64,000 bases of DNA from Acidimicrobiales bacterium (lineage in GTDB: Bacteria > Actinomycetota > Acidimicrobiia > Acidimicrobiales > Iamiaceae): positions 2,201 through 66,200 of the forward strand of contig JAODBM010000192.1 of the NCBI GenBank assembly GCA_025463985.1, in the 5' to 3' direction. Below are positions 1 through 38,798 of this stretch, one piece after another. Under the pieces are notes generated by a model. It was not told where the DNA came from, did not search any database, and was given only the letters and a program-made list of their open reading frames with translations. Both the position numbers and the translations under genes were made by a program. Position 1 is the first letter of the stretch; every line of letters starts with the position of its first letter.

Positions 1-2
1 CC

Positions 3-428
3 TACGCGGCGGCCAAGGCCGCGATCGCCAGCCTCACGACGGTCACCGCCCTCGAGATGGCCCGCTACGGCGTGACCGTCAACGCCATCTCGCCGGTCGC
101 CCTGACCCGCATGACCTCGACGATCCCCGCGATGGCCGACGCCAAGCTCGCCGACGGCGCGTTCGACCCGATGGACCCGGCCAACTCCTCGCCGGTCGTC
201 GCCTTCCTCGCCTCGGACGCCGCCGCGTGGCTGTCCGGCCAGGTGCTGCGGATCGAGGGCAACGTGCTGCGACGCATGCACGGCTGGCGGATCTCGGACC
301 GGGTCTACCAGGCGAAGGCGGGCGGCCGGCTCGAGGCCGAAGAGGTGCTGGCCGGGACCCAGTCCATCTGGGAGACGATCCCCGGGGGCCTCAACACGTC
401 GGCCGGCGTCAGCCTGAGCGTGTCATGA
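3..428 (+). CDS. Short-chain dehydrogenase/reductase (SDR), C-terminal part; 5' end lies outside the window
   Basis: The frame is open from base 3. It begins YAAAKAAIASLT (the SDR YxxxK catalytic motif) followed by NAISP. Stop TGA is at 426-428 and overlaps the next ATG (ATGA). Confidence 0.85.
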   Translation, partial: YAAAKAAIASLTTVTALEMARYGVTVNAISPVALTRMTSTIPAMADAKLADGAFDPMDPANSSPVVAFLASDAAAWLSGQVLRIEGNVLRRMHGWRISDRVYQAKAGGRLEAEEVLAGTQSIWETIPGGLNTSAGVSLSVS

Positions 429-1585
429 GCACGGCAGCCCCGAGCGCGGGCCGAACCGAGCTGGTCGAGCAGCTCGACGCGTGGATCACCGGCCACGCCG
501 ATCTCCTCGAGGCCCACCGCGAGCACGACCCCCGCTCCGTCGAACAGACCGCGGAGAACGAGCGCGAGCTGCAGCGACTCCTGTTCGAGGACGGTTGGAC
601 CCGCTGGGGCTGGCCCGAGGACTGCGGCGGCCTCGGTGGGGACGCCACCAACCGCGCTGTGCTCTACGACCGCATGGGCGCGCACGGCTACGTCCTGCCC
701 GAGCTGCTCGGCGTGGTCGAGACCCTCGGCCCGATGCTGATCGAGTTCGCCCGGCCGATCGCGCAGGCCCACCTGGCCGCGCTCCTGCGCGGCGACGAGA
801 TGTGGTGCCAGGGCTTCTCCGAGCCGAACGCCGGGAGCGACCTCGCCTCCTTGCGCTGCAAGGCCACGCAGGACGATGACGGCTTCGTGGTCAACGGCCA
901 GAAGATCTGGGTGTCCCTGGGCCACGTCGCGCAGTGGTGCGTGCTGCTCGCCCGTACCGGCTCGCAGGAGTCGGCCCACCGCGGCATCAGCATGTTCATG
1001 GTCGACATGTCGCTCCCGGGCATCGAGGTGCGACCGATCCGCTACGCCAACGGCCGCAACGAGCTGTCCGAGCTGTTCTTCAGCGACGTGCGGCTGCCGC
1101 CCGAGGCGTTGATCGGCGAGGCCGGCGCCGGCTGGAACGTCGCGATGTACCTGCTCCAGTGGGAGCGGGGGATGTACGCCTGGCAACGCCAAGCGTGGCT
1201 GCACAAGCGCCTCGACGACCTGGTCGTCGGGCTCGGCTCCGACGCGGGGGCGCAGGCGGACCGGCTCGGTGACGTCTACCTGGATCTCGCCTCGCTGCGG
1301 GCCACGTGCGCCCGCACGGTCGCCGCGCTCGCTCGCGGCGAGAGTCCCGGTCCCGAGATCTCCGTCGACAAGCTGCTGCTCGGCGCGGGCGAGCAGTCGG
1401 TGATCGATGCGGCAATCGAGCTGCTCGACGCCGACATGGCGCTGTCACCGGAGGCCGCGGGCTGGCGCTCCGACTACTTCTACGCCCGTGCCGCCACGAT
1501 CTACGGCGGCGCCGCCGAGATCCAGCGGGGCATCATCGCCCAGCGCGTGCTCGGCCTCCCTCGGGAGGTGCGCAGTGGACGCTGA
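425..1585 (+). CDS. Acyl-CoA dehydrogenase, alpha-type (FAD-binding) subunit
   Basis: The in-frame ATG at 425 inside ORF 227..1585 overlaps the upstream stop. Motifs are GFSEPNAGSDLASLR and the C-terminal IYGGAAEIQRGIIAQRVLGLP. Confidence 0.9.
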   Translation: MSTAAPSAGRTELVEQLDAWITGHADLLEAHREHDPRSVEQTAENERELQRLLFEDGWTRWGWPEDCGGLGGDATNRAVLYDRMGAHGYVLPELLGVVETLGPMLIEFARPIAQAHLAALLRGDEMWCQGFSEPNAGSDLASLRCKATQDDDGFVVNGQKIWVSLGHVAQWCVLLARTGSQESAHRGISMFMVDMSLPGIEVRPIRYANGRNELSELFFSDVRLPPEALIGEAGAGWNVAMYLLQWERGMYAWQRQAWLHKRLDDLVVGLGSDAGAQADRLGDVYLDLASLRATCARTVAALARGESPGPEISVDKLLLGAGEQSVIDAAIELLDADMALSPEAAGWRSDYFYARAATIYGGAAEIQRGIIAQRVLGLPREVRSGR

Positions 1586-2564
1586 GACTCGCGAGATGTA
1601 CCGCAAGACGCTCGGGGGCCTCATGCGGCGCGTCGGTGCCGAAGGCGCGGGCGAGAGCGATGTCGTGGCCGAGCTGCGCGAGCTCGGCTGGGACGAGCTG
1701 ACCGTCGAGGAGCCGACGGAGAGCGTCGCCTTGCTGTTCGAAGAGCAGGGTGCCGCGCTCGTGGCTTCGCGGGCGCTCGACATGGTGGTCGCGGCCGCGC
1801 TCGGCCTCGACGATCGCTCGGTCGGGATCGCGTATCCCGAGCCCGGGCCCACGAACGTGACGTCGGCCATCAACGACGATGGCCGACTCACGATCGCGGG
1901 CTTGCTGCTCGGCGCATCCGAGGCCGCGGAGATCGCGGTGCCGGCGCAGGCGGGCACCGGCGTCGTCGTCGCGATCGTCTCTCGCGGGGCCCTCTCGGTC
2001 GTCGAGATGGAGGGGTTCGACGACGCGGCCGGGTTCACCCGCGTCACCGGCGTGGTCGAAGCCCGTCACTACCGGTTGCTCGACGGTGCGGCCTGGGCCG
2101 TGGCGGTCGCCGCTGGACGGCGGGCCCTCGCGCACGAGCTGGTCGGCCTGGCCTCGCACATGATCGACCGGGCCGCCGGCTACGTCATCGAGCGCGAGCA
2201 GTTTGGTCGTCCGCTCGGCACGTTCCAGGCGGTGCAGCACCGCTTGGCGGACGCCTACACCGGCCTCGTGGCGGCCCGCTCGGTCCTGGCCGCGATTGAG
2301 CCGGACGACGTGCTCTTCGGCAGCCTGGTCGCAAAGGCCGTGGCCGGCCGCGCCGCGATCCGCGCCGCGCACTCGTGCACGCAGGTCACCGGCGCGATCG
2401 GCTGCACGTGGGAGTACGAGCTGCACCGTTACCTGCGGCGCACGCACGCCTTGGACGCCCTGCTCGGCTCGTGGCGGGCGCTGCGCAAGGCGATCGGCCA
2501 GCAGATGGCCGAGGACGGTCACGCCGCACGGTTGGGGTCGGCGCCCGAGGGGCCTGCGGCATGA
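1575..2564 (+). CDS. Acyl-CoA dehydrogenase-like protein, beta-type subunit (degenerate FAD motif)
   Basis: GTG at 1575 inside ORF 1407..2564 overlaps the upstream gene by 11 nt; ATG 1596 is an alternative start. It has the ACAD C-terminal signature REQFGRPLGTFQAVQHRLAD and GAIGCTWEYELHRYLRR. It lacks the SEPxxGSD motif and has YPEPGPTNV in that position. Confidence 0.8.
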   Translation: MDAETREMYRKTLGGLMRRVGAEGAGESDVVAELRELGWDELTVEEPTESVALLFEEQGAALVASRALDMVVAAALGLDDRSVGIAYPEPGPTNVTSAINDDGRLTIAGLLLGASEAAEIAVPAQAGTGVVVAIVSRGALSVVEMEGFDDAAGFTRVTGVVEARHYRLLDGAAWAVAVAAGRRALAHELVGLASHMIDRAAGYVIEREQFGRPLGTFQAVQHRLADAYTGLVAARSVLAAIEPDDVLFGSLVAKAVAGRAAIRAAHSCTQVTGAIGCTWEYELHRYLRRTHALDALLGSWRALRKAIGQQMAEDGHAARLGSAPEGPAA

Positions 2565-2609
2565 GCGCCGTCGCCGGGCTCACCATCACGTCACGCGCCG
2601 GAGGCCGCC

Positions 2610-3710
2610 GTGGACTTCGCGTGGCCTGACGAGATCGAGGCGCTGCGCTGCGAGGCGCTCGAGGTCGGCCGGGCGGCCGCCGCCTCCCTGTCCATCCGCG
2701 AGGAGTCGTGGGTGCGCGGCTTCGATCGCGACTTCTCGCGCCAGCTCGGCGAGCGGGGCTGGCTGGGGATGACCTGGCCGCGCGAGGTCGGTGGCCACGA
2801 GCGGACGGCACTCGAGCGCTTCGTCGTCACCGAGGCGCTGATCTCCACCGGCGCGCCGTTGGCGGCGACGTGGGTGGGCGACCGCCAGATCGGCCCGACG
2901 CTCCTGGCCAACGGGTCGCCCGAGCAGATCGCGCGGTACCTCCCGCCGATGGCCGCGGGCGAGGTCACCTGGTCGCTCGGGATGAGCGAGCCCGACGCGG
3001 GCTCGGACCTCGCGTCGCTGCGCACCCGCGCCGTCGAGCGTGACGGTGCCTGGGTGATCGAGGGCCAGAAGGTCTGGACGAGCTTCGCTGCGGTGGCCGA
3101 CCACTGCTACCTGGTGGCTCGCACCGACCCGGACGCGCCGCCCCACGCCGGCATGTCCGAGTTCATCGTCCACATGGACGCCCCGGGCATCACCGTCGCG
3201 CCGATCCGCGACATCACCGGCGAGTCGCACTTCTGTGAGGTCGTGTTCGACGGAGTCGTCCTCCCGCGCGACGCGCTGGTCGGCAAGGAGAACGGCAGCT
3301 GGCAGCAGCTGATGCGCCAGCTCGAGCACGAGCGCGGCGGCATCGACCGGCTCATGAGCAACCGCGCGCTCTACGAGGACGCCCGAGCGACGGCTGATCG
3401 CTCCAACCCGACGGCGGCCCAGGAGATCGCGGCCATCGAGACGATGTATCGCATCGTGCGCCTCGCCGTGATCCGCGAGGTCATCGGCCAGGCACCTCCC
3501 GGGTTCTCCGCCGTGACCAAGATCCTCGGCACCGAGCTGGAGCAGCGGATCGCCCAGTTCGTCGCGGCCACGGCGGGCCCGGCGGCGATGCTCGACGGAC
3601 GGGTGTCGCGCGCCGTCGTCTACGCGCCCGCCTACACGATCCAGGGCGGGACCAGCGCCATCTTGCGCAACGTCATCGGCGAGCGTTTGCTCGGGCTGCC
3701 GCGGCGCTGA
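2610..3710 (+). CDS. Acyl-CoA dehydrogenase
   Basis: GTG start. Motifs are GMSEPDAGSDLASLR, GQKVWTSFA and the C-terminal YTIQGGTSAILRNVIGERLLGLPR. Confidence 0.9.
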   Translation: MDFAWPDEIEALRCEALEVGRAAAASLSIREESWVRGFDRDFSRQLGERGWLGMTWPREVGGHERTALERFVVTEALISTGAPLAATWVGDRQIGPTLLANGSPEQIARYLPPMAAGEVTWSLGMSEPDAGSDLASLRTRAVERDGAWVIEGQKVWTSFAAVADHCYLVARTDPDAPPHAGMSEFIVHMDAPGITVAPIRDITGESHFCEVVFDGVVLPRDALVGKENGSWQQLMRQLEHERGGIDRLMSNRALYEDARATADRSNPTAAQEIAAIETMYRIVRLAVIREVIGQAPPGFSAVTKILGTELEQRIAQFVAATAGPAAMLDGRVSRAVVYAPAYTIQGGTSAILRNVIGERLLGLPRR

Positions 3711-3778
3711 TCCTGCGGTTCCGCTAAATGATTTAATGTATCAACCGGGCAAGGACGACGAGCGCCGCGGAGCTGGAC

Positions 3779-4963
3779 ATGGATGACCTGTTGACCTCTG
3801 AGCAAGAGCAGTTGCGCGCCGACGTGCGCGACTTCATCGACGGGTCGGTGATCCCGGCCGAGGACGCGCTCTACGGGGGCGGGCTCAACGGCCTCGCCAC
3901 GATGGAGAAGCTCAAGGCCGAGGCGAAGGAGCGCGGCCTGTGGGCGCTCGGCCACCCGAAGGAGATCGGCGGCGGGGGCCTGCCCTTCATGGCGATGACG
4001 CTCATGAACGCGGTGATCGGGCGGTCGTTCTTCGGCCAGTCCGCGATCGGCTCGTGGTCGATGCAGGACTCGATCATGCTCAACCTCTACGGCACCGACG
4101 AGCAGAAGGCGCGCTGGCTGGGCCCGCTCGTCGCCGGTGAGATCCGCTCCTCGATCGGCATGACCGAGCCCGAGGTCGCGGGGTCGGACCCGAAGCTGAT
4201 CCAGTCCACCGCGGTGCTCGACGGCGACGAGTGGGTGATCAACGCCCACAAGTGGTTCACCACGGGCGCGAACATCGCGGCCTTCACGACCGTCTTCGCC
4301 GTCACCGAGCCCGACGATGCGCCGCCGCACCGCCGCATCTCGTCCATCCTGGTCCCCACCGACAGCCCCGGCTACGAGGTCGTGCGCGTCATGGAGACGA
4401 TGGGGGAGACCGTCGGCGCCCACTGCGAGATCCGCCTCACCGACGTGCGGGTTCCCGCCGACCACCTGCTGGGCGGTCGCGGCGAGGGGTTCCTCATCAG
4501 CCAGAAGCGGCTCGGCCCCGGGCGCATCTTCCACTGCATGCGCTGGCTCGGGCAGGCGATCCGGGCGTTCGAGCTCATGTGCGAGTACTCCACCCGCCGG
4601 TTCGCCCACGGGTCGATGCTCTCGGAGAAGGGCGAGATCCAGCGCTACATCGCGGAGTCGGCGGCGGACATCCAAGCCCATCGCCTGCTGACCCTCGACG
4701 CGGCCCAGGCGTTCGACCGCGGCGAAGACACGCGGCTGCAGGTGAGCCTGGCCAAGTTCCGCGGCGCGCAGATCCTCAACGACGTGATCGACCGAGCGAT
4801 CCAAGTCCACGGCGCGCTCGGCATCACCGCGGACACGCCGCTCGAGCGGATGTACCGCGAGGCGCGGGGCGCGCGGATCTACGACGGGCCCGACGAGGTC
4901 CACCGGATGGTGGTGGCCCGCAAGCTCGCGAAGGACCCGGGCGCGGCACCCTGGGCCTCGTAG
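3779..4963 (+). CDS. Acyl-CoA dehydrogenase (ACAD10/11 / FadE2-like type)
   Basis: 394-aa ORF with motifs GMTEPEVAGSDP, NAHKWFTTGA and ARIYDGPDEVHRMVVARKL. An A/T-rich box lies in the 68-bp upstream gap. Confidence 0.9.
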   Translation: MDDLLTSEQEQLRADVRDFIDGSVIPAEDALYGGGLNGLATMEKLKAEAKERGLWALGHPKEIGGGGLPFMAMTLMNAVIGRSFFGQSAIGSWSMQDSIMLNLYGTDEQKARWLGPLVAGEIRSSIGMTEPEVAGSDPKLIQSTAVLDGDEWVINAHKWFTTGANIAAFTTVFAVTEPDDAPPHRRISSILVPTDSPGYEVVRVMETMGETVGAHCEIRLTDVRVPADHLLGGRGEGFLISQKRLGPGRIFHCMRWLGQAIRAFELMCEYSTRRFAHGSMLSEKGEIQRYIAESAADIQAHRLLTLDAAQAFDRGEDTRLQVSLAKFRGAQILNDVIDRAIQVHGALGITADTPLERMYREARGARIYDGPDEVHRMVVARKLAKDPGAAPWAS

Positions 4964-5000
4964 CCGGCCGCCGCGTGGGCGCCGAGCGGGTCGGGCGACG

Positions 5001-6158
5001 ATGACCGCGGACCCGTTGATCGCGATCGCCGACGGGCCCGACAACCCCGGCATCTCGCCGGCCGAGGTGTGCGAGATGCTCGGGCTGCGCGACCCGCAAA
5101 CCTTGATCGGCTGGACGGTCGAGGACACGCCGTGGCTCGCGGACCTCGAGCCGGGCCGCACCCGGTCGATCATGGGCGGCTACGGCTTGACCGCGGCGAT
5201 CGCGGACGGACGCGTGACCTACCTGCCGGTCCGCCTCGCGTCGGTGCCGCGCCTCCTGGCCGGTGCGCTGCGGCCGAACGTCGCGGTGGTCAGCGGGTGC
5301 TGGCGGGGTGACCGGCTGGTGTTCCGCGGCAGCGTCGGCTGGGCCGCCGCGGCCGCCGCGAACGCCGACGTCGTGGTCGTCGAGGTCGACGCCGAGGCCC
5401 CCGACATCGGTGCGCCCGAGATCCCGGGCCGCATCGGGCCCGTCGTCGACCGCCAACGGCAACCTCGGCCCGTGGTTCGCCGGGCGCCCACCCCTGCCGA
5501 CGAGCAGATCGGCGCGCACGTCCGCTCGCTGCTCCCCGAGGGCGCCACGCTGCAGCTGGGCATCGGCGGGATCGCCGACGCGGTCCTCGGCCAGCTCGAT
5601 CGACCGGTGACGATCTGGTCGGGGCTCGTGTCCGATGGCCTGGTCGATCTCGACGAGCGCGGGCTGCTCGAAGGCACGGCCACCACGACCTACGTCTGGG
5701 GCGGTTCCCGCCTGCTCGACCTCGCGGCAGCGGGCCGCCTGCGCGTCGTCCCGGTCGAGCAGAGCCACGACCTGGGGGCGCTGCGGTCGCTGCAGCGCTT
5801 CGTCACGGTCAACGCCGCGGTCGAGGTGGCGCTCGACGGGTCGGTCAACGTCGAGCGCAGCGGTGGCCGGGTGGTCGGCGGGATCGGCGGGCACGCCGAC
5901 TTCTGCGCCGCGGCTGCCCTCGGGCGGGACGCGCTGTCGGTGGTGGCGGTCCGGGCCGAGCATGCGGGCCGCTCGACGATCCAGCGCCGGGTCGAGGTGG
6001 TCTCGACCGGCCGCTCCGACGTCGACGTGGTGGTCACCGAGCACGGCATCGCCGACCTCCGCGGCCTCGGTGACACCGAGCGGGCCGAGCGCCTCATCGC
6101 GGTGGCCGCGCCGCACCATCGCGACGGGCTGCGCTCGACGCTCGACAGGATTGAGTGA
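5001..6158 (+). CDS. Acetyl-CoA hydrolase/transferase family protein (4-hydroxybutyrate CoA-transferase-like)
   Basis: 385-aa ORF with the family-typical GGIGGHADF motif and LQLGIGGIADAVL. It is somewhat shorter than typical family members. Confidence 0.7.
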   Translation: MTADPLIAIADGPDNPGISPAEVCEMLGLRDPQTLIGWTVEDTPWLADLEPGRTRSIMGGYGLTAAIADGRVTYLPVRLASVPRLLAGALRPNVAVVSGCWRGDRLVFRGSVGWAAAAAANADVVVVEVDAEAPDIGAPEIPGRIGPVVDRQRQPRPVVRRAPTPADEQIGAHVRSLLPEGATLQLGIGGIADAVLGQLDRPVTIWSGLVSDGLVDLDERGLLEGTATTTYVWGGSRLLDLAAAGRLRVVPVEQSHDLGALRSLQRFVTVNAAVEVALDGSVNVERSGGRVVGGIGGHADFCAAAALGRDALSVVAVRAEHAGRSTIQRRVEVVSTGRSDVDVVVTEHGIADLRGLGDTERAERLIAVAAPHHRDGLRSTLDRIE

Positions 6159-7282: not shown

Positions 7283-7292
7283 CGGAGGCCTG

Positions 7293-8066
7293 ATGGCTCT
7301 GCTGACCGAGCGGCGTGGGGCAGTGCTCCACCTGACCCTCGACCGACCCGACGCCTACAACGCGATCGACCCCGAGCTCCGCGACGGGCTCATCAGCGCC
7401 CTGGATGCGGCCGAGGGCGACGGCGCCCGCTGCATCGTGATCCGCGGCAACGGCCGGGGCTTCAGCGCCGGTGCCGACATGAAGAGCTCGAACGCGGACC
7501 TGCGCGGCATCGACATCATGATCCTGATGCGGGGCTCGACGCAGCGGCTCGTGCGGGCCGTCCTCGGGTGCCCGGTCCCGATCGTCACCGCCGTCCACGG
7601 CGCCTGCGCGGGCGTGTCGCTCACGCTCGCCCTGGCCAGCGACTACTGCATCGCCACTGAAGACGCCCGCTTCATCGCCGCGTTCGTCCAGCGCGGTCTC
7701 GTGCCCGACGGCGCCGCCACCTACCTGCTCCCGCGGCTCGTCGGCATGGGCCGGGCCAAGCGCTTCCTCCTGCTGGGGGAGACTATGACCGCCGCCGAGG
7801 CGGAGGCAGCCGGCATCGTGGCCGAGGTCGTCGCGCCCGACCAGCTGGCGACCGCCGCCGACGCGGCGGCGGCGCGGTTCGCGGCGTTGCCCACGCGCAC
7901 CCTCGGCTACACCAAGCAGATGCTGGCCCGCAGCTTCGAGCTCGACCTCGACTCGACGCTCTTGGAGGAGCGCGCCGGTCAGGCCCTGGTGGGCACGACC
8001 GACGACTCGCGGGAAGGCATCGCGGCCTTCCGCGAAAAGCGCCCCCCCGTCTACCGAGGCACCTGA
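7293..8066 (+). CDS. Enoyl-CoA hydratase/isomerase (crotonase family)
   Basis: ATG 7293 is preceded by GGAGG inside ORF 7179..8066. Motif RGNGRGFSAGADM. C-terminus EGIAAFREKRPPVY. Confidence 0.9.
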   Translation: MALLTERRGAVLHLTLDRPDAYNAIDPELRDGLISALDAAEGDGARCIVIRGNGRGFSAGADMKSSNADLRGIDIMILMRGSTQRLVRAVLGCPVPIVTAVHGACAGVSLTLALASDYCIATEDARFIAAFVQRGLVPDGAATYLLPRLVGMGRAKRFLLLGETMTAAEAEAAGIVAEVVAPDQLATAADAAAARFAALPTRTLGYTKQMLARSFELDLDSTLLEERAGQALVGTTDDSREGIAAFREKRPPVYRGT

Positions 8067-8072
8067 CAGCCG

Positions 8073-8310
8073 CAACTGGGCGGGGATGCGGTCGCCCCGG
8101 CAACCGGGATGCCGCCCAGTTGCGGGGGTGCGGCCAACTGGGCGGGGATGCGGTCGCCCCGGCAACCGGGATGCCGCCCAGTTGCGGGGGGCGCGGCCAA
8201 CTGGGCGGGGATGCGGTCGCCCCGGCAACCGGGATGCCGCCCAGTTGCGGGGGGCGCGGCCAACTGGGCGGAGTCTCGGTCGCCCCGGCAACCGGGATGC
8301 CGCCCAGTTG
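8073..8310. repeat. Tandem array of four 62-63 bp units, each an imperfect ~50 bp palindrome (CAACTGGGCGG-N28-CCGCCCAGTTG)
   Basis: Units start at 8073, 8135, 8198 and 8261. Units 2 and 3 are identical, unit 1 differs in the linker, and unit 4 has 4 substitutions in the loop. The 11-bp arms are perfect in all four. The array fills the gap between two convergent genes. Confidence 0.95.
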
Positions 8311-8333
8311 CGGGTTGGTTGCGGGGGCGCGGG

Positions 8334-9779
8334 TCAGCGGGCGTCGGCGGCCAACGCGCGGCGCAGGAGCTTGCCGCTCGCGTTGCGCGGCAGCGACGCG
8401 GCGAACGCCCACTCGGTCGGGACCTTGAAGCCCGACAGCCGGTGGCGCACGAACGCGGTGAGCTCGTCGGTCGAGACCGGTGCGTCGGGGTCGGCGAGCA
8501 CGACGATGGCCTTGATCGTCTCGCCCAGCCGGGCGTCGGGCACGCCGATCACGCCGGCCTCCACCACCGCCGGGTGGGCCTCGAGGGCGCGCTCGACCTC
8601 GAGCGGGTACACGTTCTCGCCGCCGCGGATGATCTTGTCGCCCTTGCGCCCGACGAGGAACAGGTAGCCGTCGTCGAGGCGGCCGAAGTCGCCGGTGCGC
8701 AGCTCGTGGTCGGCGTCGGCGCCGAACAGGTGGTCGCCGCGCACGACGACCTCCCCGACGCCCACGAGCGCGTCGTCGTCGTCGAGCGGCTCGATGCGCA
8801 GGTCCAGCCCCTCGACCGGACGGCCCGCGGCCGCCAGCAGCGCCGGACGCTCCAGCCCCACGAGGTGGTCCTCGTGCGACAGCTTGGTCAGCGGGCTGCC
8901 CTCGGTCTGGCCGTACACCTGCACGAAGCGCACGCCGGGGATCGCGTCCATCACCGCCCGCAGCAGCGTGGGGCTCATCGGCGAGCCGCCGTAGGCGATC
9001 ACCCGCACGCCCTCGGGCAGCTTGTCGGCCCGCAGCAGCATCTCGATCATCGTCGGGACCATGAGCACGTGGCTCGGGTCGGTCGCGGCGAAGCGCGCCC
9101 ACACGTCGATCGAGAACCATGGCACGGGCGCGATCGACGCCCCCGAAGCCAGCGCGGACCAACCCATGATCAGCCCGGACATGTGGTGGAACGGCGGGAC
9201 CGTGCAGAGGCGGTCGCCGGGTGCAAGCTCGTAGGCGCGGGCCGTGGCCCGCGCCTTGCGGAGCATGGCATCGTCGCTGATCGGCACGGGCTTGGGCACG
9301 CCGGTGGTGCCTGACGTGTGCAGGATCGCGATCGGGTCGCCGGGGCGGTAGGTGGGTGTCCCGGCCGGAGCCGGCTCGAAGCGGTCGGGAAGCGTGAGGA
9401 CGCGCACGTTGGGCGGTAGCTCGGCCGCCACCGCCGCGCTCGCGGGCTCGACGACCACGACCGACGGCGCGAGGAGCGAGATCGACTGCGCGAGCTCGGT
9501 CGGCGTCATCTTCGGGTTGACCGGCGCGAGCGGTCGACCGGTCAGGGCCCCGGCGATGGCCAACGCGAAGCTCCGCGCCGAGCCGTAGAGGAGGCCGGCC
9601 ACCGGCACGCTGGGCGTCGCGCCGGCGGCATCGAGCCAGCGGGCGGCTCCCCACGCGGCGGACAGCAGCTCCGGACCCGACCAGCGCGCCTCGGCTTCGG
9701 CGATCGCGCACTCGGCGGTGCTGAGCGCGTCGACCAGCGCGACGCGAAAGCTCGTGGCGGGCGCCGCGTCAGCGGTCAT
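8334..9779 (-). CDS. AMP-dependent acyl-CoA synthetase/ligase
   Basis: 481-aa ORF with the AMP-binding motif LHTSGTTGVPKP, DGYLFLVGRKGDKIIRGGENVYP and C-terminal lysine GKLLRR. Confidence 0.9.
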   Translation of the reverse strand: MTADAAPATSFRVALVDALSTAECAIAEAEARWSGPELLSAAWGAARWLDAAGATPSVPVAGLLYGSARSFALAIAGALTGRPLAPVNPKMTPTELAQSISLLAPSVVVVEPASAAVAAELPPNVRVLTLPDRFEPAPAGTPTYRPGDPIAILHTSGTTGVPKPVPISDDAMLRKARATARAYELAPGDRLCTVPPFHHMSGLIMGWSALASGASIAPVPWFSIDVWARFAATDPSHVLMVPTMIEMLLRADKLPEGVRVIAYGGSPMSPTLLRAVMDAIPGVRFVQVYGQTEGSPLTKLSHEDHLVGLERPALLAAAGRPVEGLDLRIEPLDDDDALVGVGEVVVRGDHLFGADADHELRTGDFGRLDDGYLFLVGRKGDKIIRGGENVYPLEVERALEAHPAVVEAGVIGVPDARLGETIKAIVVLADPDAPVSTDELTAFVRHRLSGFKVPTEWAFAASLPRNASGKLLRRALAADAR

Positions 9780-32336: not shown

Positions 32337-33239
32337 GTGAAGGCCTCCTTCTTTCCGGGACGGTGGCACGAGCTGCCGAGCGGCGACCTTGCCGATTGCG
32401 TGGACGTGGGCCGCATGGTCGAGGACGCCGGCCTCTACGGCATCCAGATGGGCGACCACGTGGTCATGGGCAACCGCCCGGACCGCTACCCCTATGGCCA
32501 GTTCCGCCACGAGCTCGAATGCCCGTGGCCCGAACCGATCGCGACCCTGAGCGCGATCGCGGCCGTCACGTCCACGATCCGCCTCTCGATGAGCGTGATC
32601 CTCACGCCGCTGCGGCCGGCGATCCTTCTTGCCAAGCAGCTGGCGACCCTGGACGTCCTGTCGCGTGGGCGCCTGGAGCCCGGCATCGGGCTCGGCTGGC
32701 AGCGCGAGGAGTACGAGGCCGAGGGCCTCGAATGGCGCGACCGCCATCAGCTCTTCGAGGACGGCATCGCCGTGTGCCGCGCCCTTTGGGAGGAGGAGCA
32801 GCCGGTCTCCTTCAAGGGCGAGACCGTCAGCTTCGCCGACCTCTATGCGCTCCCGCGCCCCGTGCAATCGCGGATCCCGATCCTCTTCGGCGTGGTGCTC
32901 AACGAGCGCAACATCGAGCTCATCACCCGCCTCGGCGATGGCTGGACGCCGGTCGCCGGCGGCGAGGAGCTGCGGGCCGGCCGGCAGCAGCTGCAGGACG
33001 CGTTCACGGCTGCGGGCCGTGATCCCGACGAGCTGATCGTGCGCGGCGGCGTGCAGTTCGGCTTCGACGATCACGGCCGGCTCGACATCGCTCGGGCGGT
33101 GGACGAGGCCCGTGAGCTGGAAGCGATCGGCTCGGACGTCGTCACGCTCGGCCTGCCGGTCGGCTTCGGCCGCGCCTTCGAGACCATGGCCGACCTCGGC
33201 ACGTTCATCGCTGAAGTCGGTCGTCAGGTGGCCGAATGA
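32337..33239 (+). CDS. Luciferase-like monooxygenase (LLM) family oxidoreductase, F420/FMN-dependent class
   Basis: GTG start. Motifs are LDVLSRGRLEPGIGLGWQREEYEAEG and RHQLFEDGIAVCRALW. Confidence 0.85.
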   Translation: MKASFFPGRWHELPSGDLADCVDVGRMVEDAGLYGIQMGDHVVMGNRPDRYPYGQFRHELECPWPEPIATLSAIAAVTSTIRLSMSVILTPLRPAILLAKQLATLDVLSRGRLEPGIGLGWQREEYEAEGLEWRDRHQLFEDGIAVCRALWEEEQPVSFKGETVSFADLYALPRPVQSRIPILFGVVLNERNIELITRLGDGWTPVAGGEELRAGRQQLQDAFTAAGRDPDELIVRGGVQFGFDDHGRLDIARAVDEARELEAIGSDVVTLGLPVGFGRAFETMADLGTFIAEVGRQVAE

Positions 33240-33339
33240 CGGCGGCCGCCATCGCGCTTCACCCCTCCGCGCACACCTGCGCGGGACGGGGTGCAAGGCA
33301 TCACATCGACAGCACATCGCGTGCTGCGGAGGGAAAGGG

Positions 33340-34641
33340 ATGAGTGACATGGCAGACAACGTGGAACAGGCGTCGAGGCGCCGGCGACGAGGGAGGGGAA
33401 CGATCCTCTTGTCGGTCGGGCTGACGGCGAGCATGTTCGTTGCCGCGTGTGGGTCCAGTTCGAAGTCCTCCACGACCACAGCACCGCCCACGAGCACGGG
33501 CCCCGCGGTCAGCGGCACCCCGATCAAGATCGGGCAGATCGCCGCGGGCGACGTCACGTACCAGCCCAAGTCGAGCACCGCCAAGGACGTGCTCGACATG
33601 TGGGTCAAGTGGACGAACAATCACGGCGGTGTCGCAGGACACCCCGTGGAGGTCGTCTCGCGCGACGAGAAGGGCGATCCCGCGGTCGGGCTCTCGGCCG
33701 CGAAGGAGCTGCTCCAGCAGGAGAAGGTCGTCGCGCTCGTCGGCAACAACGCCACCTCGGCTGAGCAGGCGATCCAGCCGGTCATCGAGGCCGCGAAGGT
33801 TCCCGTGGTCGGTGGTGTCGCCTATGGCGCGGCGTACCTGACCTCGAAGGCCTTCTATCCGGTCGGCCCGCAGATCACGACGCAGATCTTTGGCGCCCTC
33901 TACGCCGTGAAGAACAAGGTCAACGTGAGCGCGGCCGCCGTGCTCATCTGCAACGAGTCGGCCATCTGCGACGGCGCCATCCCGCTGTACCAGAAGTTCG
34001 CCCCGACGCTCGGGATGACCATCGGTCCGATCGTCAAGGCCGCGGTCACCCAGCCCAACTACACCGCCGAATGCCTGTCCATCAAGGACAAGGGCGTGAA
34101 GGCGATCATCGTGGCTGGCCCGCCGTTGGAGAAGGTCGCTTCGGACTGCAAGCGCCAGGGCTTCGAGCCCCGGATCCTGACCAATGACCTGTTCGGTGTC
34201 ACGCCCGCCGTGGCCAAGAACGTGAACCTGGTCAGCATCATCTCGGGCTTCCCGGTGTTCCAGCAGTTCCCGGAGACCAAGGCGTTCTTCGATGCGCTGA
34301 AGCAGTACCACCCGGAGTACCTCGAGGGCGGCGACAAGTACGACTCGTTCGTCTCCGGCGGAACGGGTGGCTCGATCGGCTCGCTGACGTGGGCCGCCGC
34401 TGAGGCGTTCAAGAAGGCCGTCGAGAACTCCGGTGCCGCGCCGACCGCGACCGTCACCAGCGCCGACGTGATCAAGGGCCTCTCGATGTTCAAGGGCGAG
34501 ACCCTTGGCGGCATCGCCCAGCCCCTCACCTACGGCGACGGCACCACGCCGCAGCCGCAGCAGAAGTGCTTCTTCCTGGCCTCGACCGAGACCGGGAAGA
34601 TCACCGCCCCCGACGGCCTGAAGCCGTCCTGCATGCCGTAA
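33340..34641 (+). CDS. ABC transporter substrate-binding lipoprotein (LivK / Peripla_BP_6 type)
   Basis: ATG 33340 follows GGAGGGAAAGGG inside ORF 33112..34641. The N-terminus has RRRRRGRG, a hydrophobic stretch and the lipobox FVAACG. The body is typical of branched-chain-amino-acid-type binding proteins. Confidence 0.8.
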   Translation: MSDMADNVEQASRRRRRGRGTILLSVGLTASMFVAACGSSSKSSTTTAPPTSTGPAVSGTPIKIGQIAAGDVTYQPKSSTAKDVLDMWVKWTNNHGGVAGHPVEVVSRDEKGDPAVGLSAAKELLQQEKVVALVGNNATSAEQAIQPVIEAAKVPVVGGVAYGAAYLTSKAFYPVGPQITTQIFGALYAVKNKVNVSAAAVLICNESAICDGAIPLYQKFAPTLGMTIGPIVKAAVTQPNYTAECLSIKDKGVKAIIVAGPPLEKVASDCKRQGFEPRILTNDLFGVTPAVAKNVNLVSIISGFPVFQQFPETKAFFDALKQYHPEYLEGGDKYDSFVSGGTGGSIGSLTWAAAEAFKKAVENSGAAPTATVTSADVIKGLSMFKGETLGGIAQPLTYGDGTTPQPQQKCFFLASTETGKITAPDGLKPSCMP

Positions 34642-34642
34642 T

Positions 34643-34687
34643 CAGCTCGTCGGGGTGGGGGCGTGGCGGCGCCCCCACCCCGAGCTG
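34643..34687 (+). terminator. Strong GC-rich intercistronic stem-loop (about 18 bp stem) directly after the binding-protein gene
   Basis: CAGCTC(GTC)GGGGTGGGGGCG at 34643-34663 pairs with CGCCCCCACCCCGAGCTG at 34670-34687 around a 6-nt loop. No U-tract follows. The role could be partial termination or an mRNA-stabilising structure. Confidence 0.5.
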
Positions 34688-34724
34688 ATCGGCAGACCGT
34701 TCGACCCGAGGGAACTCACCTCCA

Positions 34725-37506
34725 ATGCACAGCCTCTTGCCCTTCCTCATCACCGGCATCACGATCGGCGCCGTCTACGGCCTGGCCGCGACCGGGCTCG
34801 TCCTGACCTACAAGACCTCGGGCATCTTCAACTTCGCCCACGGGTCGGTCGCGAGCCTCGCGGTCTTCGCGTTCTACGAGCTGCGCATCAAGCAGGGGCT
34901 TCCATGGCCGCTTGCGGCATTCATCGCGGTGTTCGTGCTCGGGCCGATCGGGGGCTTGCTGCTTGAACGCATGGCCCGGCTCTTGGCCGACGTCGGCCAC
35001 GTGCTGAAGATCACCGCGACGGTCGGCCTCATCCTCGTGGTGATCGCCTTCGGCAACATCTACTACGGCGACGTCACCGAGCTGTTCCCGACCTACCTCC
35101 CGATCAAGACGGTCAAGTTCGCCGGCGTCTTCATCGGCTACGACCAGATCATCATCTTCGTGATCGCCGTCACCTGCACGACGGCGCTCGCCATCTTCTT
35201 CAAGCGGGCCCCCCTCGGGGTCAAGATGCGCGGCGTCGTCGACGACGCCGCCTTGCTCTCCATGACCGGCACGAGCCCGGCCCGGGTTCGGCAGTACGCC
35301 TGGATGATCGGCTCGACGTTCGCCTGCCTCTCCGGCGTGCTGCTCGCGCCGACGCTCAACATCAACGGCACCGTGCTCACGCTCCTCGTGGTGCAAGCGT
35401 TCGGTGCGGCCGCGATCGGCTTCTTCTCCAGCCTGCCGCGCACGTTCGTCGGCGGCCTGATCATCGGCGTTGGCGGCGCGCTCGCCACCAAGTACTCGAT
35501 CAACTACTCGATCCTGGCCGACCTGCCAATCGGCCTGCCGTTCCTCATCCTCTTCGTGGTCCTGATCTTCACGCCGCGGTCGAAGCTGATCGACCGGCGG
35601 TTCTCGGCCCCACGATCGCTCACGCCTGAGTGGCATGCGCCCAACCGGGTGCGGATGCTCGTCGGCGTGGCGGCCGTCGTCGTCCTCGGCTTCGTCCCGC
35701 AGTTCGCCTCGAACAAGCTCCCGATCTACACGATCGGCGTCATCACGATGATCCTCTTCCTGTCGCTGGGCGTCCTCGTCCGGGCGTCGGGGCAGGTCTC
35801 GCTGTGCCAGTACGGCTTCGCGGCGGTCGGCGCCGCGGCCATGGCCCACTTCAGCCAGGGCGCGCACCTTCCCTGGCTCCTCGCGTTGGTCCTCGCCGCT
35901 CTGGTGATGATCCCGGTCGGCGCCCTCGTCGCCATCCCGGCCGTGCGGCTCTCGGGCGTGTTCCTCGCGCTGGCCACGTTCGGCTTCGGCGTGCTCCTGC
36001 AGTCGGTGTTCTACGGCCGCAAGTTCATGTTCGGCTCGGGCTTCAACGGCCTGCCGGCGCGCCGGCCGCACATGTCGGTGTTCGGCCTCGACCTCAACTC
36101 GGACAACGGCTTCTACTACGTGTGCCTCGCCGTCGCCGTGGTGCTCGCCGTGGTCGTGGTCCTCTTGCTGAACGGGCGCCTGGGCCGGCTGCTCCGCGCC
36201 CTCTCCGACTCGCCGGTCGCGTTGGAGACCTACGGCTCGGCCGTGACCGTGCTGCGGGTGCTCACGTTCTGCCTGTCGGCCATGCTCGCCGGCATCGCCG
36301 GGGCGCTCACCGTGAGCCTCTACAGCTTCGGCACCGGCAGCACGTTCCCGGCCTTCAACTCGCTGACGCTGGTCGCGCTCATCACGATCATCCCGATCGG
36401 GCTCCCGTGGTACGCCGTCGTCGGCGCCGCGAGCATGACGATCGTCCCGTCGTACATCAGCGGCGGCAACGTGACGCACTACCTGAACCTCCTCTTCGGG
36501 CTCTCGGCGATCCTGGCGCCGCTCACGATCGGGCGGCACAAGGGTGCGCCCGAGCCGATCCGCCGCCTGGCGGCTCGCCTCGACCAGCTGCTGCCCGGGC
36601 GACGGATGGCGCCTGCGCTGGCCGGCGCCGGGGCGATCGACGTCCACGCCGCGACCGGCCGCGGCGAGCTCGGCACGGACCGCAGCGGCTTGGAGGTCCA
36701 CGGCCTGCGCGTGCAGTACGGCGGCGCGGTCGCGGTCACGAGCCTCGACCTGGTCGCCCCGCGTGGCGCGATCACCGGCCTGATCGGTCCCAACGGCGCC
36801 GGCAAGACGACGACGTTCAACGTGTGCTCGGGCCTCGTGCGCCCGACGGCTGGCGCGGTGATCCTCCACGGCAACGACATCTCCGGCCAGGGGGTCGCCA
36901 CCCGTGCACGCGACGGCATCGGCCGGACGTTCCAGCGGGTCGAGCTGTTCGAGAGCCTGTCCGTGCGCGAGAACATCGCGCTCGGGCGCGAGGCCGGGAT
37001 GGCCGGCAACAGCGTGGTGCGCCAGATCGTGGCCCGGGCGCACGAGCGACGGACCGTCGATGAGGCCGTGACCGTCGCCGCCGAGCTGACCGGCATCACC
37101 GGCCTGCTCGACGTGCGGGCTCGCGACCTCAGCACCGGCCAGCGCCGGCTGCTGGAGCTGGCCCGTGCACTGGCCGGACCGTTCGACATGCTGCTGCTCG
37201 ACGAGCCGTCGTCGGGCCTCGATCACTCGGAGACGAGGCGCTTCGGCGAGATCCTCCAGCGCGCCGTGGAGCAGCTCGACGTCGGCGTGCTGATCGTCGA
37301 GCACGACATGGCGCTGGTGCAGCAGATCTGCAACCACGTCTACGTGCTCGACTTCGGCCAGCTCATCTTCGAGGGCTCGACGCCCGAGATGCTGGCGAGC
37401 GACGTCGTGCGGGCCGCCTACCTGGGCACCGACTCGGCGGCGCTGCCACCACCAGTCGAGCTGGACGACGTCCCCGATGCCCCCCTGACCGTCGGGGTTC
37501 CGACCG

Positions 37507-37514
<8 letters not shown>
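34725..37514 (+). CDS. Fused ABC transporter protein: LivH-type permease + LivM-type permease + LivG-type ATPase in one 929-aa polypeptide
   Basis: Single uninterrupted ORF. The N-terminus is LTYKTSGIFNFAHG (LivH-like). The middle is SGQVSLCQYGFAAVGA (LivM-like). The C-terminus has Walker A GPNGAGKTTTFN, signature LSTGQRRLLELARAL and Walker B LLLDEPSSGLD. Confidence 0.85.
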
Positions 37515-38265
<751 letters not shown>

Positions 38266-38284
38266 CCCACCCCACCACCCGAAC

Positions 38285-38326
38285 TGGGCTGGGGTTCGGT
38301 CGTCCCAACGACCGCAACCCAGCCCA
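38285..38326. terminator. Long nested hairpin between convergent genes (candidate bidirectional terminator), related in sequence to the 8073-8310 repeat unit
   Basis: TGGGCTGGGGTT-CGGTCGT-CCCA-ACGACCG-C-AACCCAGCCCA. The inner stem is 7 bp and perfect. The outer stem is 11 bp with one bulge. Confidence 0.55.
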
Positions 38327-38345
38327 CTTCCGTGGTGCGGCGCGC

Positions 38346-38798
38346 TCAGCCCAGCTGGGCCGGGGACTGGAGCGGCAGCATGTCGTCGAGCGTGATCCGC
38401 TTCTCGATGCACACGGCTGCGCCGTCGCGGGCGACGAACACGTCGTAGTAGGTGCCGGCGCCGATGAACGAGGCCTCGCCGGCGGCGTACACGAGGGCGA
38501 AGGTGGACCGGACGACCGTGCGGTCGGCCTCGGCTTCCTCGACGTCGATGTTGGTCACCAGGTGGTGGGCGCCACCGGTCCCGGCGGTGGCGAACAGCTC
38601 ACCGAAGAACTCGACGATGGCGTCGCGCCCGTCGCGGTCCACGCCGTCGGCGCCGTTGAAGAAGGCGCTCTTGTCGAAGTGGGCGGCCAGGCCCTCGATG
38701 TCGCCGCTGTCCATCGCGCGGATGTAGCGGGCGATCGCGCTGCGGGCCCATTCGGCCCGCTCGAGTCGGGCCACGGTCTCGTTCAGGTCTGCGCTCAT
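38346..38798 (-). CDS. SnoaL-like / NTF2-fold protein
   Basis: 150-aa ORF with a pattern typical of SnoaL_4-type proteins (ARYIRAMDSGDIEGLAAHF...GAHHLVTNIDV). Confidence 0.6.
   Translation of the reverse strand: MSADLNETVARLERAEWARSAIARYIRAMDSGDIEGLAAHFDKSAFFNGADGVDRDGRDAIVEFFGELFATAGTGGAHHLVTNIDVEEAEADRTVVRSTFALVYAAGEASFIGAGTYYDVFVARDGAAVCIEKRITLDDMLPLQSPAQLG

Follow-up and report, generated by a model that had tools for sequence, protein, structure and literature searches.

The closest described systems are REP (repetitive extragenic palindromic) elements, which measure 20-40 bp and up to about 65 bp (PMC3184786), lie mainly between convergent and same-direction genes, and form clusters, which can be repeated in tandem along with the DNA that flanks them (PMC3733652). 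In E. coli, the REP325 cluster stabilises mRNA and terminates transcription in a partly Rho-dependent manner, and expression of both convergent genes correlates positively with the presence of REPs between them (bioRxiv 10.64898/2026.03.23.713779). Knowledge of small palindromic repeat families is extensive for Proteobacteria but scant for Acidimicrobiia, a class of actinobacteria that is abundant and for the most part uncultured. Here, a tandem array of palindromic units is described from a 64,000-nt stretch of contig JAODBM010000192.1 (referred to in full as the window), which belongs to the metagenome-assembled genome (MAG) of an Acidimicrobiales bacterium.

With a probability of roughly 0.6, the array arose when a single element was amplified in tandem on the spot, an element from a family of 50-nt, G+C-rich palindromes that is small, restricted to its lineage, capable of insertion, and similar to REP elements or miniature inverted-repeat transposable elements (MITEs). 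Members of the family occupy convergent gaps just after stop codons and are present or absent among collinear close relatives. The array unit and a second member, e2, differ at 30% of their positions and keep the same long-hairpin design, and at one locus the unit is reiterated head-to-tail together with 12-13 nt.

Tandem arrangement and hairpin structure of the array

Tandem Repeats Finder returned one array (8073-8314; period 63, 3.9 copies, 96% matches, score 442) that was by far the strongest in the window, all other rows scoring at most 67. As the first-pass annotation of this DNA had proposed, four units starting at 8073, 8135, 8198, and 8261 (start-to-start distances of 62, 63, and 63 nt) filled the 267-bp gap at 8067-8333, from the stop codon of a hydratase gene on the + strand to that of a ligase gene on the - strand (Table 1). 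The perfect 11-bp inverted arms reported there were also recovered: the arm CAACTGGGCGG occurred exactly eight times, four times on each strand (8073/8135/8198/8261 and 8112/8174/8237/8300). When one mismatch was allowed, 9 matches were found versus 1.9 expected, a number reached by none of 100 shuffles. The hydratase and ligase proteins were 100% identical to 'MAG: enoyl-CoA hydratase [Acidimicrobiales bacterium]' and 'MAG: long-chain fatty acid--CoA ligase [Acidimicrobiales bacterium]', respectively.

Comparison of the units showed that the 50-nt hairpin parts of units 1-3 were identical to each other. In units 2 and 3, identity extended through the 13-nt spacer, while the spacer of unit 1 measured 12 nt. 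In agreement with the earlier description, unit 4 carried four clustered core substitutions (columns 12, 14, 15, and 16) that change GGATG to AGTCT. The G+C content of the unit was 74%, against 71% for the whole window. All four units had the same orientation, head-to-tail, and scored 80-84 bits on the + strand versus 42-51 bits on the - strand with R2, a covariance model for which only the four array units were used and e2 was left out.

The copy number of the array was taken from a MAG assembly, and four copies are best read as a lower bound, since extra identical middle units may have collapsed. Conversely, the array or its copy number might be an assembly artefact, an explanation to which the MAG origin, the identity of units 2 and 3, and the 79-nt length of the longest exact repeat inside the array lend some weight, as does a related contig (L015, below) that breaks inside the element and thereby indicates that assemblers struggle there. 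This explanation is very improbable, because the units are individually marked by the 12- versus 13-nt spacer and by the four substitutions in unit 4, so that the assembly path is unique for k-mers above 79. In addition, an independent sample has the element at the same locus, and collapse of identical middle units is likelier than spurious expansion.

Table 1. Coordinates of features at the array locus and the e2 locus, with the corresponding sites in related contigs from the Joint Genome Institute (JGI).
Feature	Position or contig	Strand	DNA identity	Description
Enoyl-CoA hydratase/isomerase gene	7290..8066	+		Pfam ECH_1 2e-49; stop codon 3 nt before first hairpin stem
Unit 1	8070..8125			50-nt hairpin 8073-8122; CCG/CGG lengthens outer stem to 14 bp; 84.1 bits with model R2
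Spacer 1	8123..8134			12 nt, CGGGGGTGCGGC
Unit 2	8135..8184			Identical to units 1 and 3
Spacer 2	8185..8197			13 nt, CGGGGGGCGCGGC
Unit 3	8198..8247			Same as unit 2, spacer included; exact repeat of 79 nt
Spacer 3	8248..8260			13 nt, same as spacer 2
Unit 4 (variant)	8261..8310			GGATG to AGTCT left of inner stem; internal loop closed on + strand
Array right flank	8311..8333			CGGGTTGGTTGCGGGGGCGCGGG, holding, 3' of unit 4, a degenerate 'arm end + spacer' copy, GTTGCGGGGGCGCGG
Acyl-CoA (AMP-binding) ligase gene	8334..9779	-		Pfam AMP-binding and AMP-binding_C; convergent with hydratase gene
ABC-transporter ATPase gene, left of e2	37507..38265	+		Pfam ABC_tran
e2	38281..38330			50 nt, single diverged copy, 35/50 identical to array unit; from inverted-repeat search of the window
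SnoaL-like (NTF2-fold) gene, right of e2	38346..38798	-		Pfam SnoaL_4 and SnoaL_2; convergent with ATPase gene
Array locus	L015 (JGI 3300044816)		91.5%	Same sequence after ligase stop, into CCGCAACCGGGCGGCACCTC
Array locus	L048 (JGI 3300036402)		81-84%	No element; stop codons one base apart
e2 locus	L049 (JGI 3300044816, same sample as L015)		91-94% (flanks)	Gap of 10 nt versus 80 nt in the window
e2 locus	L050 (JGI 3300081723)		76%	Gap of 18 nt
e2 locus	L051 (JGI 3300036402)		78-84%	Gap of 23 nt

Folding predictions showed that the whole unit forms one long imperfect hairpin instead of a pair of arms around a separate core. The core does fold, as had been suggested, though not merely as a small CCGG hairpin. 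Each unit starts with an outer stem, which has 11 bp (14 bp in unit 1) and leads through a symmetric 5x5 internal loop to a 7-bp inner stem closed by a 4-nt loop; in units 1-3, GGATG stands at both sides of the internal loop. Single units reached -33 to -41 kcal/mol on either strand (unit 1, -40.6 on + and -41.1 on -), and units with three flanking bases on each side gave z values of -2.3 to -5.6 relative to shuffles. Unit 4 was more stable than unit 2 (-38.2 versus -32.7 kcal/mol) because its AGTCT forms two Watson-Crick and two G-U pairs with the right copy on the + strand. The motif GGGATGC flanks the inner stem on both sides (8084-8089 and 8107-8112; same in units 2 and 3) and thus forms a direct repeat within the palindrome, which results in the symmetric 5x5 internal loop. 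Unit 4 is without the left GGGATGC copy, and its four clustered differences resemble a single templated patch.

On neither strand were the stems of the array units followed by a U-tract or T run; CGGGGG follows them on the + strand, GCCGCGCC on the - strand. By the criteria for canonical intrinsic (Rho-independent) terminators, hairpins were present and the U-tract was absent, and a terminator scan found no site within 8067-8333. Rfam 15 gave no gathering-level match anywhere in the window and, at a permissive threshold, the sole sub-threshold match in 7950-8450 was a plant miRNA model (E 0.62).

Three other classes of element were considered for the array and rejected. A coding repeat (63 nt corresponding to 21 codons) is incompatible with a position between two stop codons, with protein ends that are conserved in relatives, and with a first spacing of 62 nt. 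The 'spacers' that a CRISPR interpretation would require are themselves repeated and, although G-runs exist, the 15-20 nt loops between them do not fit a G-quadruplex array.

A second locus, and filled and empty sites in relatives

The unit is not confined to the array. Its diverged copy e2 lies about 30 kb away, in an 80-nt gap (38266-38345) that runs from the stop codon of an ABC ATPase gene (+) to that of a SnoaL-like gene (-). In ungapped comparison with the array unit, its 35 matching positions contrast with 28 at the next best place in the window and with at most 32 in 200 shuffled windows. Model R2 found e2 at 40 bits (E 2.3e-6) in + orientation, followed by an unrelated match at 15.8 bits (E 0.36). 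The two share the 50-nt length, a CCCN loop, and the site in a convergent gap, and their left arms read GAACTGGGCTGGGGTTCGGTCGT in e2 versus CAACTGGGCGGGGATGCGGTCGC in the array unit. These results substantiated the earlier suggestion that the array is more than a simple terminator, in that its unit belongs to a repeat family with a diverged second member in the window. Model and similarity searches revealed no further members in the 64 kb, which brought the total to two loci and five units.

Together with its flanks, e2 folded into a single hairpin over nearly the whole gap, with energies of -46.3 (+) and -57.8 (-) kcal/mol. Among the distinct sequences, four stem pairs were changed on both sides; three of these separate the array units from e2 with pairing kept (1-50 CG to GC, 10-41 GC to UA, and 23-28 CG to UA). 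Covariation statistics were rejected as evidence, as the distinct sequences were too few for them to be meaningful. Likewise, G-U asymmetry was rejected as an indicator of the strand of action, since the array units fold about equally on both strands and only e2 favours the - strand.

Close relatives were identified by protein searches with the neighbouring genes; they were very few and all were short JGI metagenome contigs (Table 1). In L015, the only relative that carried the element, the sequence that follows the ligase stop codon continues into the first arm of the element, with a T-to-C change, and the contig ends 18 nt into the element (L015 1081-1112). This end position fits repeat-induced breakage of short-read assemblies at the array locus. 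The hydratase/ligase pair of L048, whose products showed 83% and 79% protein identity to those of the window, is without the element. At the e2 locus, the window differed from L049 by an indel of roughly 70 nt. Neither half of the e2 palindrome pre-exists in the empty site of this relative, thus indicating that e2 arrived as a complete palindrome and was not grown in place. The empty site is itself a mini-palindrome, AGCTGGGC-TGA-GCCCAGC. Both loci were therefore found to vary, present or absent, among close relatives. Of the outcomes that the first-pass annotation had named as refuting its proposal, confinement of the unit to one place and invariance among relatives are thus both contradicted.

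The simplest history suggested by these comparisons is that the element at the array locus entered once the ~82% relative had branched off but before the ~92% relative did, and that e2 entered after the split from the L015/L049 organism. On this history, e2 would be the younger of the two, yet it is only 70% identical to the array units, which argues that it was not derived from them and that other copies outside the window must exist or have existed. Two side observations concern the surroundings of these loci. Convergent genes of the lineage often end only 1-23 nt apart, with no room for a terminator hairpin (window 43847/43851 and 17809/17831, coordinates from a crude GC3-based gene map; L048 751/753; L049 800/811; L050 666/685; L051 721/745). 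Furthermore, contig L052 (positions 1-5253; JGI 3300080723) has matches of 75-84% DNA identity to five separate segments of the window, whose order is not the same there (SnoaL-like, p450, amidohydrolase, and CoA-transferase genes), which indicates that the gene neighbourhoods of this region have been rearranged among relatives.

The filled and empty sites also bear on the possibility that an ordinary, immobile bidirectional terminator hairpin was duplicated in place, with e2 a look-alike terminator that arose by chance or under shared constraint. Both loci are convergent 3' ends at which hairpins begin 3-15 nt past a stop codon, and annotations of high-G+C Actinobacteria commonly list hairpins without a U-tract as terminators. 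The window contains an unrelated strong hairpin of this type at 34636-34695 (-46.4 kcal/mol; 13-bp perfect G/C stem GGGGTGGGGGCG...CGCCCCCACCCC; no T-tract), located between same-direction genes at about 33037-34641 and 34725-37514. It probably represents the ordinary style of 3'-end structure of the organism, and suggests that such hairpins may be usual at 3' ends. Duplication of a terminator in place is nevertheless unlikely. Besides the missing U-tract on both strands, the same gene pairs in relatives have gaps of 1-23 nt without any hairpin, the array-unit model that gave e2 40 bits gave the other strong hairpin (34643-34687) only ~11 bits, and e2 corresponds to a ~70-nt indel between flanks of 91-94% identity in which no palindrome half pre-existed.

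The perfect 11-bp inverted arms at a fixed phase of 62-63 bp, about six helical turns, and the conservation of GGATG at either side of the inner stem throughout units 1-3 would also suit an array that works as DNA in place of RNA, made up of cruciforms or of sites for a binding protein such as gyrase, a nucleoid protein, or a regulator; binding of IHF, Pol I, and gyrase has been reported for BIMEs (bacterial interspersed mosaic elements; PMC3184786). However, the arms are not conserved in e2, where 3 of 11 arm pairs differ, two of them compensated, and the hairpin is kept, a pattern that fits recognition of structure and not of sequence. With sites at gene 3' ends instead of promoters, and no candidate binding-protein gene nearby by Pfam, a DNA-site array is highly unlikely.

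Beyond the window, searches with the exact-arm pattern (CAACTGGGCGG, 20-40 nt, CCGCCCAGTTG) in one genome for each of 185,579 species yielded 14 single matches with unrelated cores and contexts; as the array of the window was itself not recovered, this set evidently does not include the source MAG. With Y/R at the variable position, the arm pattern matched 32 single hairpins in JGI metagenomes, all unrelated. Exact-arm patterns are too strict for e2-like variants and show only that this arm pair is not widespread. A pattern of 31 specified positions common to the units and e2 had no matches in viral contigs. Nucleotide searches (blastn) with the whole gap gave nothing in plasmids and, in phages, three weak matches (E 2e-3) in a Curtobacterium phage primase gene that were judged to be due to chance. 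One contig that surfaced only through the shared arm pattern, L024 (QMCD01025756.1, positions 3457-5475), is an unrelated low-G+C metagenome contig with four copies of a 44-nt hairpin (arms CAACCGGGCGGG), which are spaced 640-700 nt apart within 180-220-nt direct repeats.

Several of these results weigh against an insertable palindromic family. Only two loci were found within the 64 kb examined, and the arm scans of species genomes and JGI metagenomes, to which e2-like variants are invisible, gave unrelated single hairpins. No transposase, integrase, or REP-associated tyrosine transposase (RAYT) was found by Pfam among the ~30 open reading frames (ORFs) of the window that were scanned, and no target-site duplication, flanking direct repeat, or clean insertion boundary was visible at either locus. 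Covariation across three distinct sequences was weak, its observed score being reached by 46 of 500 shuffles, and the likeness between e2 and the array unit could reflect shared functional constraint instead of common descent. No stem is followed by a U-tract, and the terminator scan was empty at the array. Finally, gaps of 1-23 nt suffice for close relatives; the elements are thus dispensable at these junctions and may be largely selfish or neutral.

By Pfam, the ~30 ORFs scanned belong to acyl-CoA metabolism and transport families. The window is rich in genes for acyl-CoA metabolism, with at least five AMP-binding ligases, several acyl-CoA dehydrogenases, enoyl-CoA hydratases, and a thiolase, and also encodes CoA-transferases, thioesterases, a BKACE enzyme, and a luciferase-like monooxygenase. 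Upstream of e2, a 929-aa ORF (34725-37514) combines permease domains of the branched-chain amino-acid type (BPD_transp_2, two stretches) with an ABC ATPase domain, and is followed by the separate ATPase gene at 37507-38265.

Proposed mechanism at converging transcript ends

In the proposed mechanism, a complete palindromic unit would have been inserted into a convergent junction of near-zero length, by a route in which nothing points to a RAYT. The unit at the hydratase/ligase junction, along with ~13 nt of flank, would then have been reiterated head-to-tail into four or more copies, likely through replication slippage or unequal recombination between the 63-nt repeats, with units 2 and 3 as the most recent products. 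Transcribed from either side, the elements would become the 3' untranslated region (UTR) of both converging mRNAs, in which each unit is predicted to form a very stable hairpin with the folding energies of -33 to -41 kcal/mol given above. Several such hairpins in a stack would hinder 3'-to-5' exonucleases and would pause or stop RNA polymerase, thereby curbing read-through into the antisense of the opposing gene.

Because the hairpins have no U-tract, help from Rho or another factor is probable. In-vitro work with mycobacterial RNA polymerase reportedly suggested that U-tracts are necessary for intrinsic termination. Taken together with the missing U-tract, this leads to an expectation of transcript stabilisation and factor-assisted attenuation, and not of classical intrinsic termination. 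By analogy with REP clusters, the hairpins probably act as two-sided transcript-end structures that combine a read-through barrier with an mRNA stabiliser. Among the roles proposed in the first-pass annotation, stacked bidirectional terminators or insulators would be the most plausible for the array.

A bolder version of the mechanism can be offered tentatively, and is itself doubtful. It would hold that the elements form an undescribed, currently active, tag-less family of 50-nt hairpins in Acidimicrobiales that is mobilised by a non-RAYT route, inserts specifically in near-zero convergent junctions, installs two-sided transcript-end structures de novo, and expands head-to-tail. If true, the window would show the birth of terminators or insulators by a mobile element, caught at two ages in one genome.

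The same convergent gene pairs that are 1-23 nt apart in relatives are separated here by 80 or 267 nt of hairpin DNA, and two insertion ages can be distinguished. The comparison of filled and empty sites can thus serve, as a natural experiment, to ask whether such elements set up transcript-end barriers where there were none before, and in what way head-to-tail clusters come about. The 63-bp array is, moreover, a likely copy-number-variable marker, and a likely break point for short-read assemblies of the lineage.

Comparison with known repeat families

Like REPs, the array unit is a short, G+C-rich, imperfect palindrome in an extragenic position between stop codons. With 50 nt (63 nt including the spacer), it is at the upper end of the sizes published for REPs and above the typical 20-40 nt. 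REPs are found both as single copies and as clusters, can be repeated in tandem along with flanking DNA, and differ in location between related strains (PMC3733652, PMC3184786), all of which applies here. REP clusters also form 3'-UTR hairpins that stabilise upstream mRNA and attenuate read-through (bioRxiv 10.64898/2026.03.23.713779), properties that may extend to the array by analogy. In contrast, REPs usually exceed 100 copies per genome, against two loci in 64 kb, and REP/BIME elements are known from Enterobacteria, Pseudomonas, and Stenotrophomonas, whereas the host of the array is an Acidimicrobiales actinobacterium. The REP-like part of the earlier proposal thus stood, on the strength of e2 and of presence and absence in relatives. 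Its BIME part did not, given the single orientation and the lack of a tag, and neither did its alternative of a MIRU (mycobacterial interspersed repetitive unit), given the convergent, non-operonic position.

These likenesses leave some room for a classical REP/BIME or REPIN family mobilised by a RAYT encoded outside the window. A G+C-rich imperfect palindrome that is extragenic, clustered, and located at convergent 3' ends, and whose presence varies between relatives, agrees with such an origin. RAYT genes (Y1 transposases) are typically flanked by their cognate repeats; none was among the ~30 ORFs of the window that were scanned but, as RAYTs are usually single-copy (PMC5581495), their absence from 64 kb says little and a copy could lie beyond it. 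RAYT mobilisation is nonetheless quite improbable. Neither end of the unit has the GTAG or CGTC tag (as defined in PMC3733652): GTAG, CTAC, CGTC, and GACG were all absent from 8060-8340, and the one CGTC of the e2 region lies in the apex of the hairpin and not at an end. The unit is longer than usual, and its head-to-tail arrangement, neither alternating nor in inverted doublets, has been reported as absent or rare for REPs. In BIMEs, as described in PMC2817692, regularly spaced REPs alternate in orientation, while the array units share one orientation. REPINs, following PMC3337134, consist of two REPs inverted around a spacer, while direct repeats and the singleton e2 are found here. What is shared with REPIN/RAYT systems is a non-autonomous palindromic family within one lineage with variable site occupancy; the difference is that no RAYT gene was seen among the ORFs scanned.

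The MIRU-type variable-number tandem repeats (VNTRs) of Mycobacterium are likewise actinobacterial, intergenic tandem direct repeats of 40-100 bp, a range that includes the period of 63. They also show filled and empty sites between related genomes and imperfect terminal and internal G-C-rich inverted repeats (PMC3184786). However, MIRUs lie inside operons, are transcribed polycistronically, have ORF ends that overlap their neighbours, and are accompanied by tetranucleotide direct repeats at filled sites (PMC3184786), whereas the array lies between convergent stop codons, has a first spacing of 62 nt that breaks the frame, and shows no flanking direct repeat. With MITEs, the array shares terminal inverted repeats (the perfect 11-bp arms, 14 bp in unit 1) and the empty sites of relatives at both loci, yet no direct repeat flanks the inserts and their boundaries are unclean. 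SPRITE, a terminator-like MITE of Streptococcus pneumoniae, is unrelated in sequence, and differs from the array in that the latter has no U-tract and is tandemly reiterated.

The 'I-shaped' terminators annotated in high-G+C Actinobacteria combine a long, G+C-rich stem after the stop codon with the absence of a T run. These structures are unique per gene, whereas the array unit is repeated four times and has a homologue elsewhere with presence/absence polymorphism. The closest description of the array is therefore an untagged REP-like or MITE-like palindromic repeat family with a head-to-tail cluster. The current understanding of REP-like elements is unchanged by these findings, and the kind of element is well known; what is new is the second locus, the filled and empty sites in relatives, and the occurrence of an untagged family in a poorly studied lineage.

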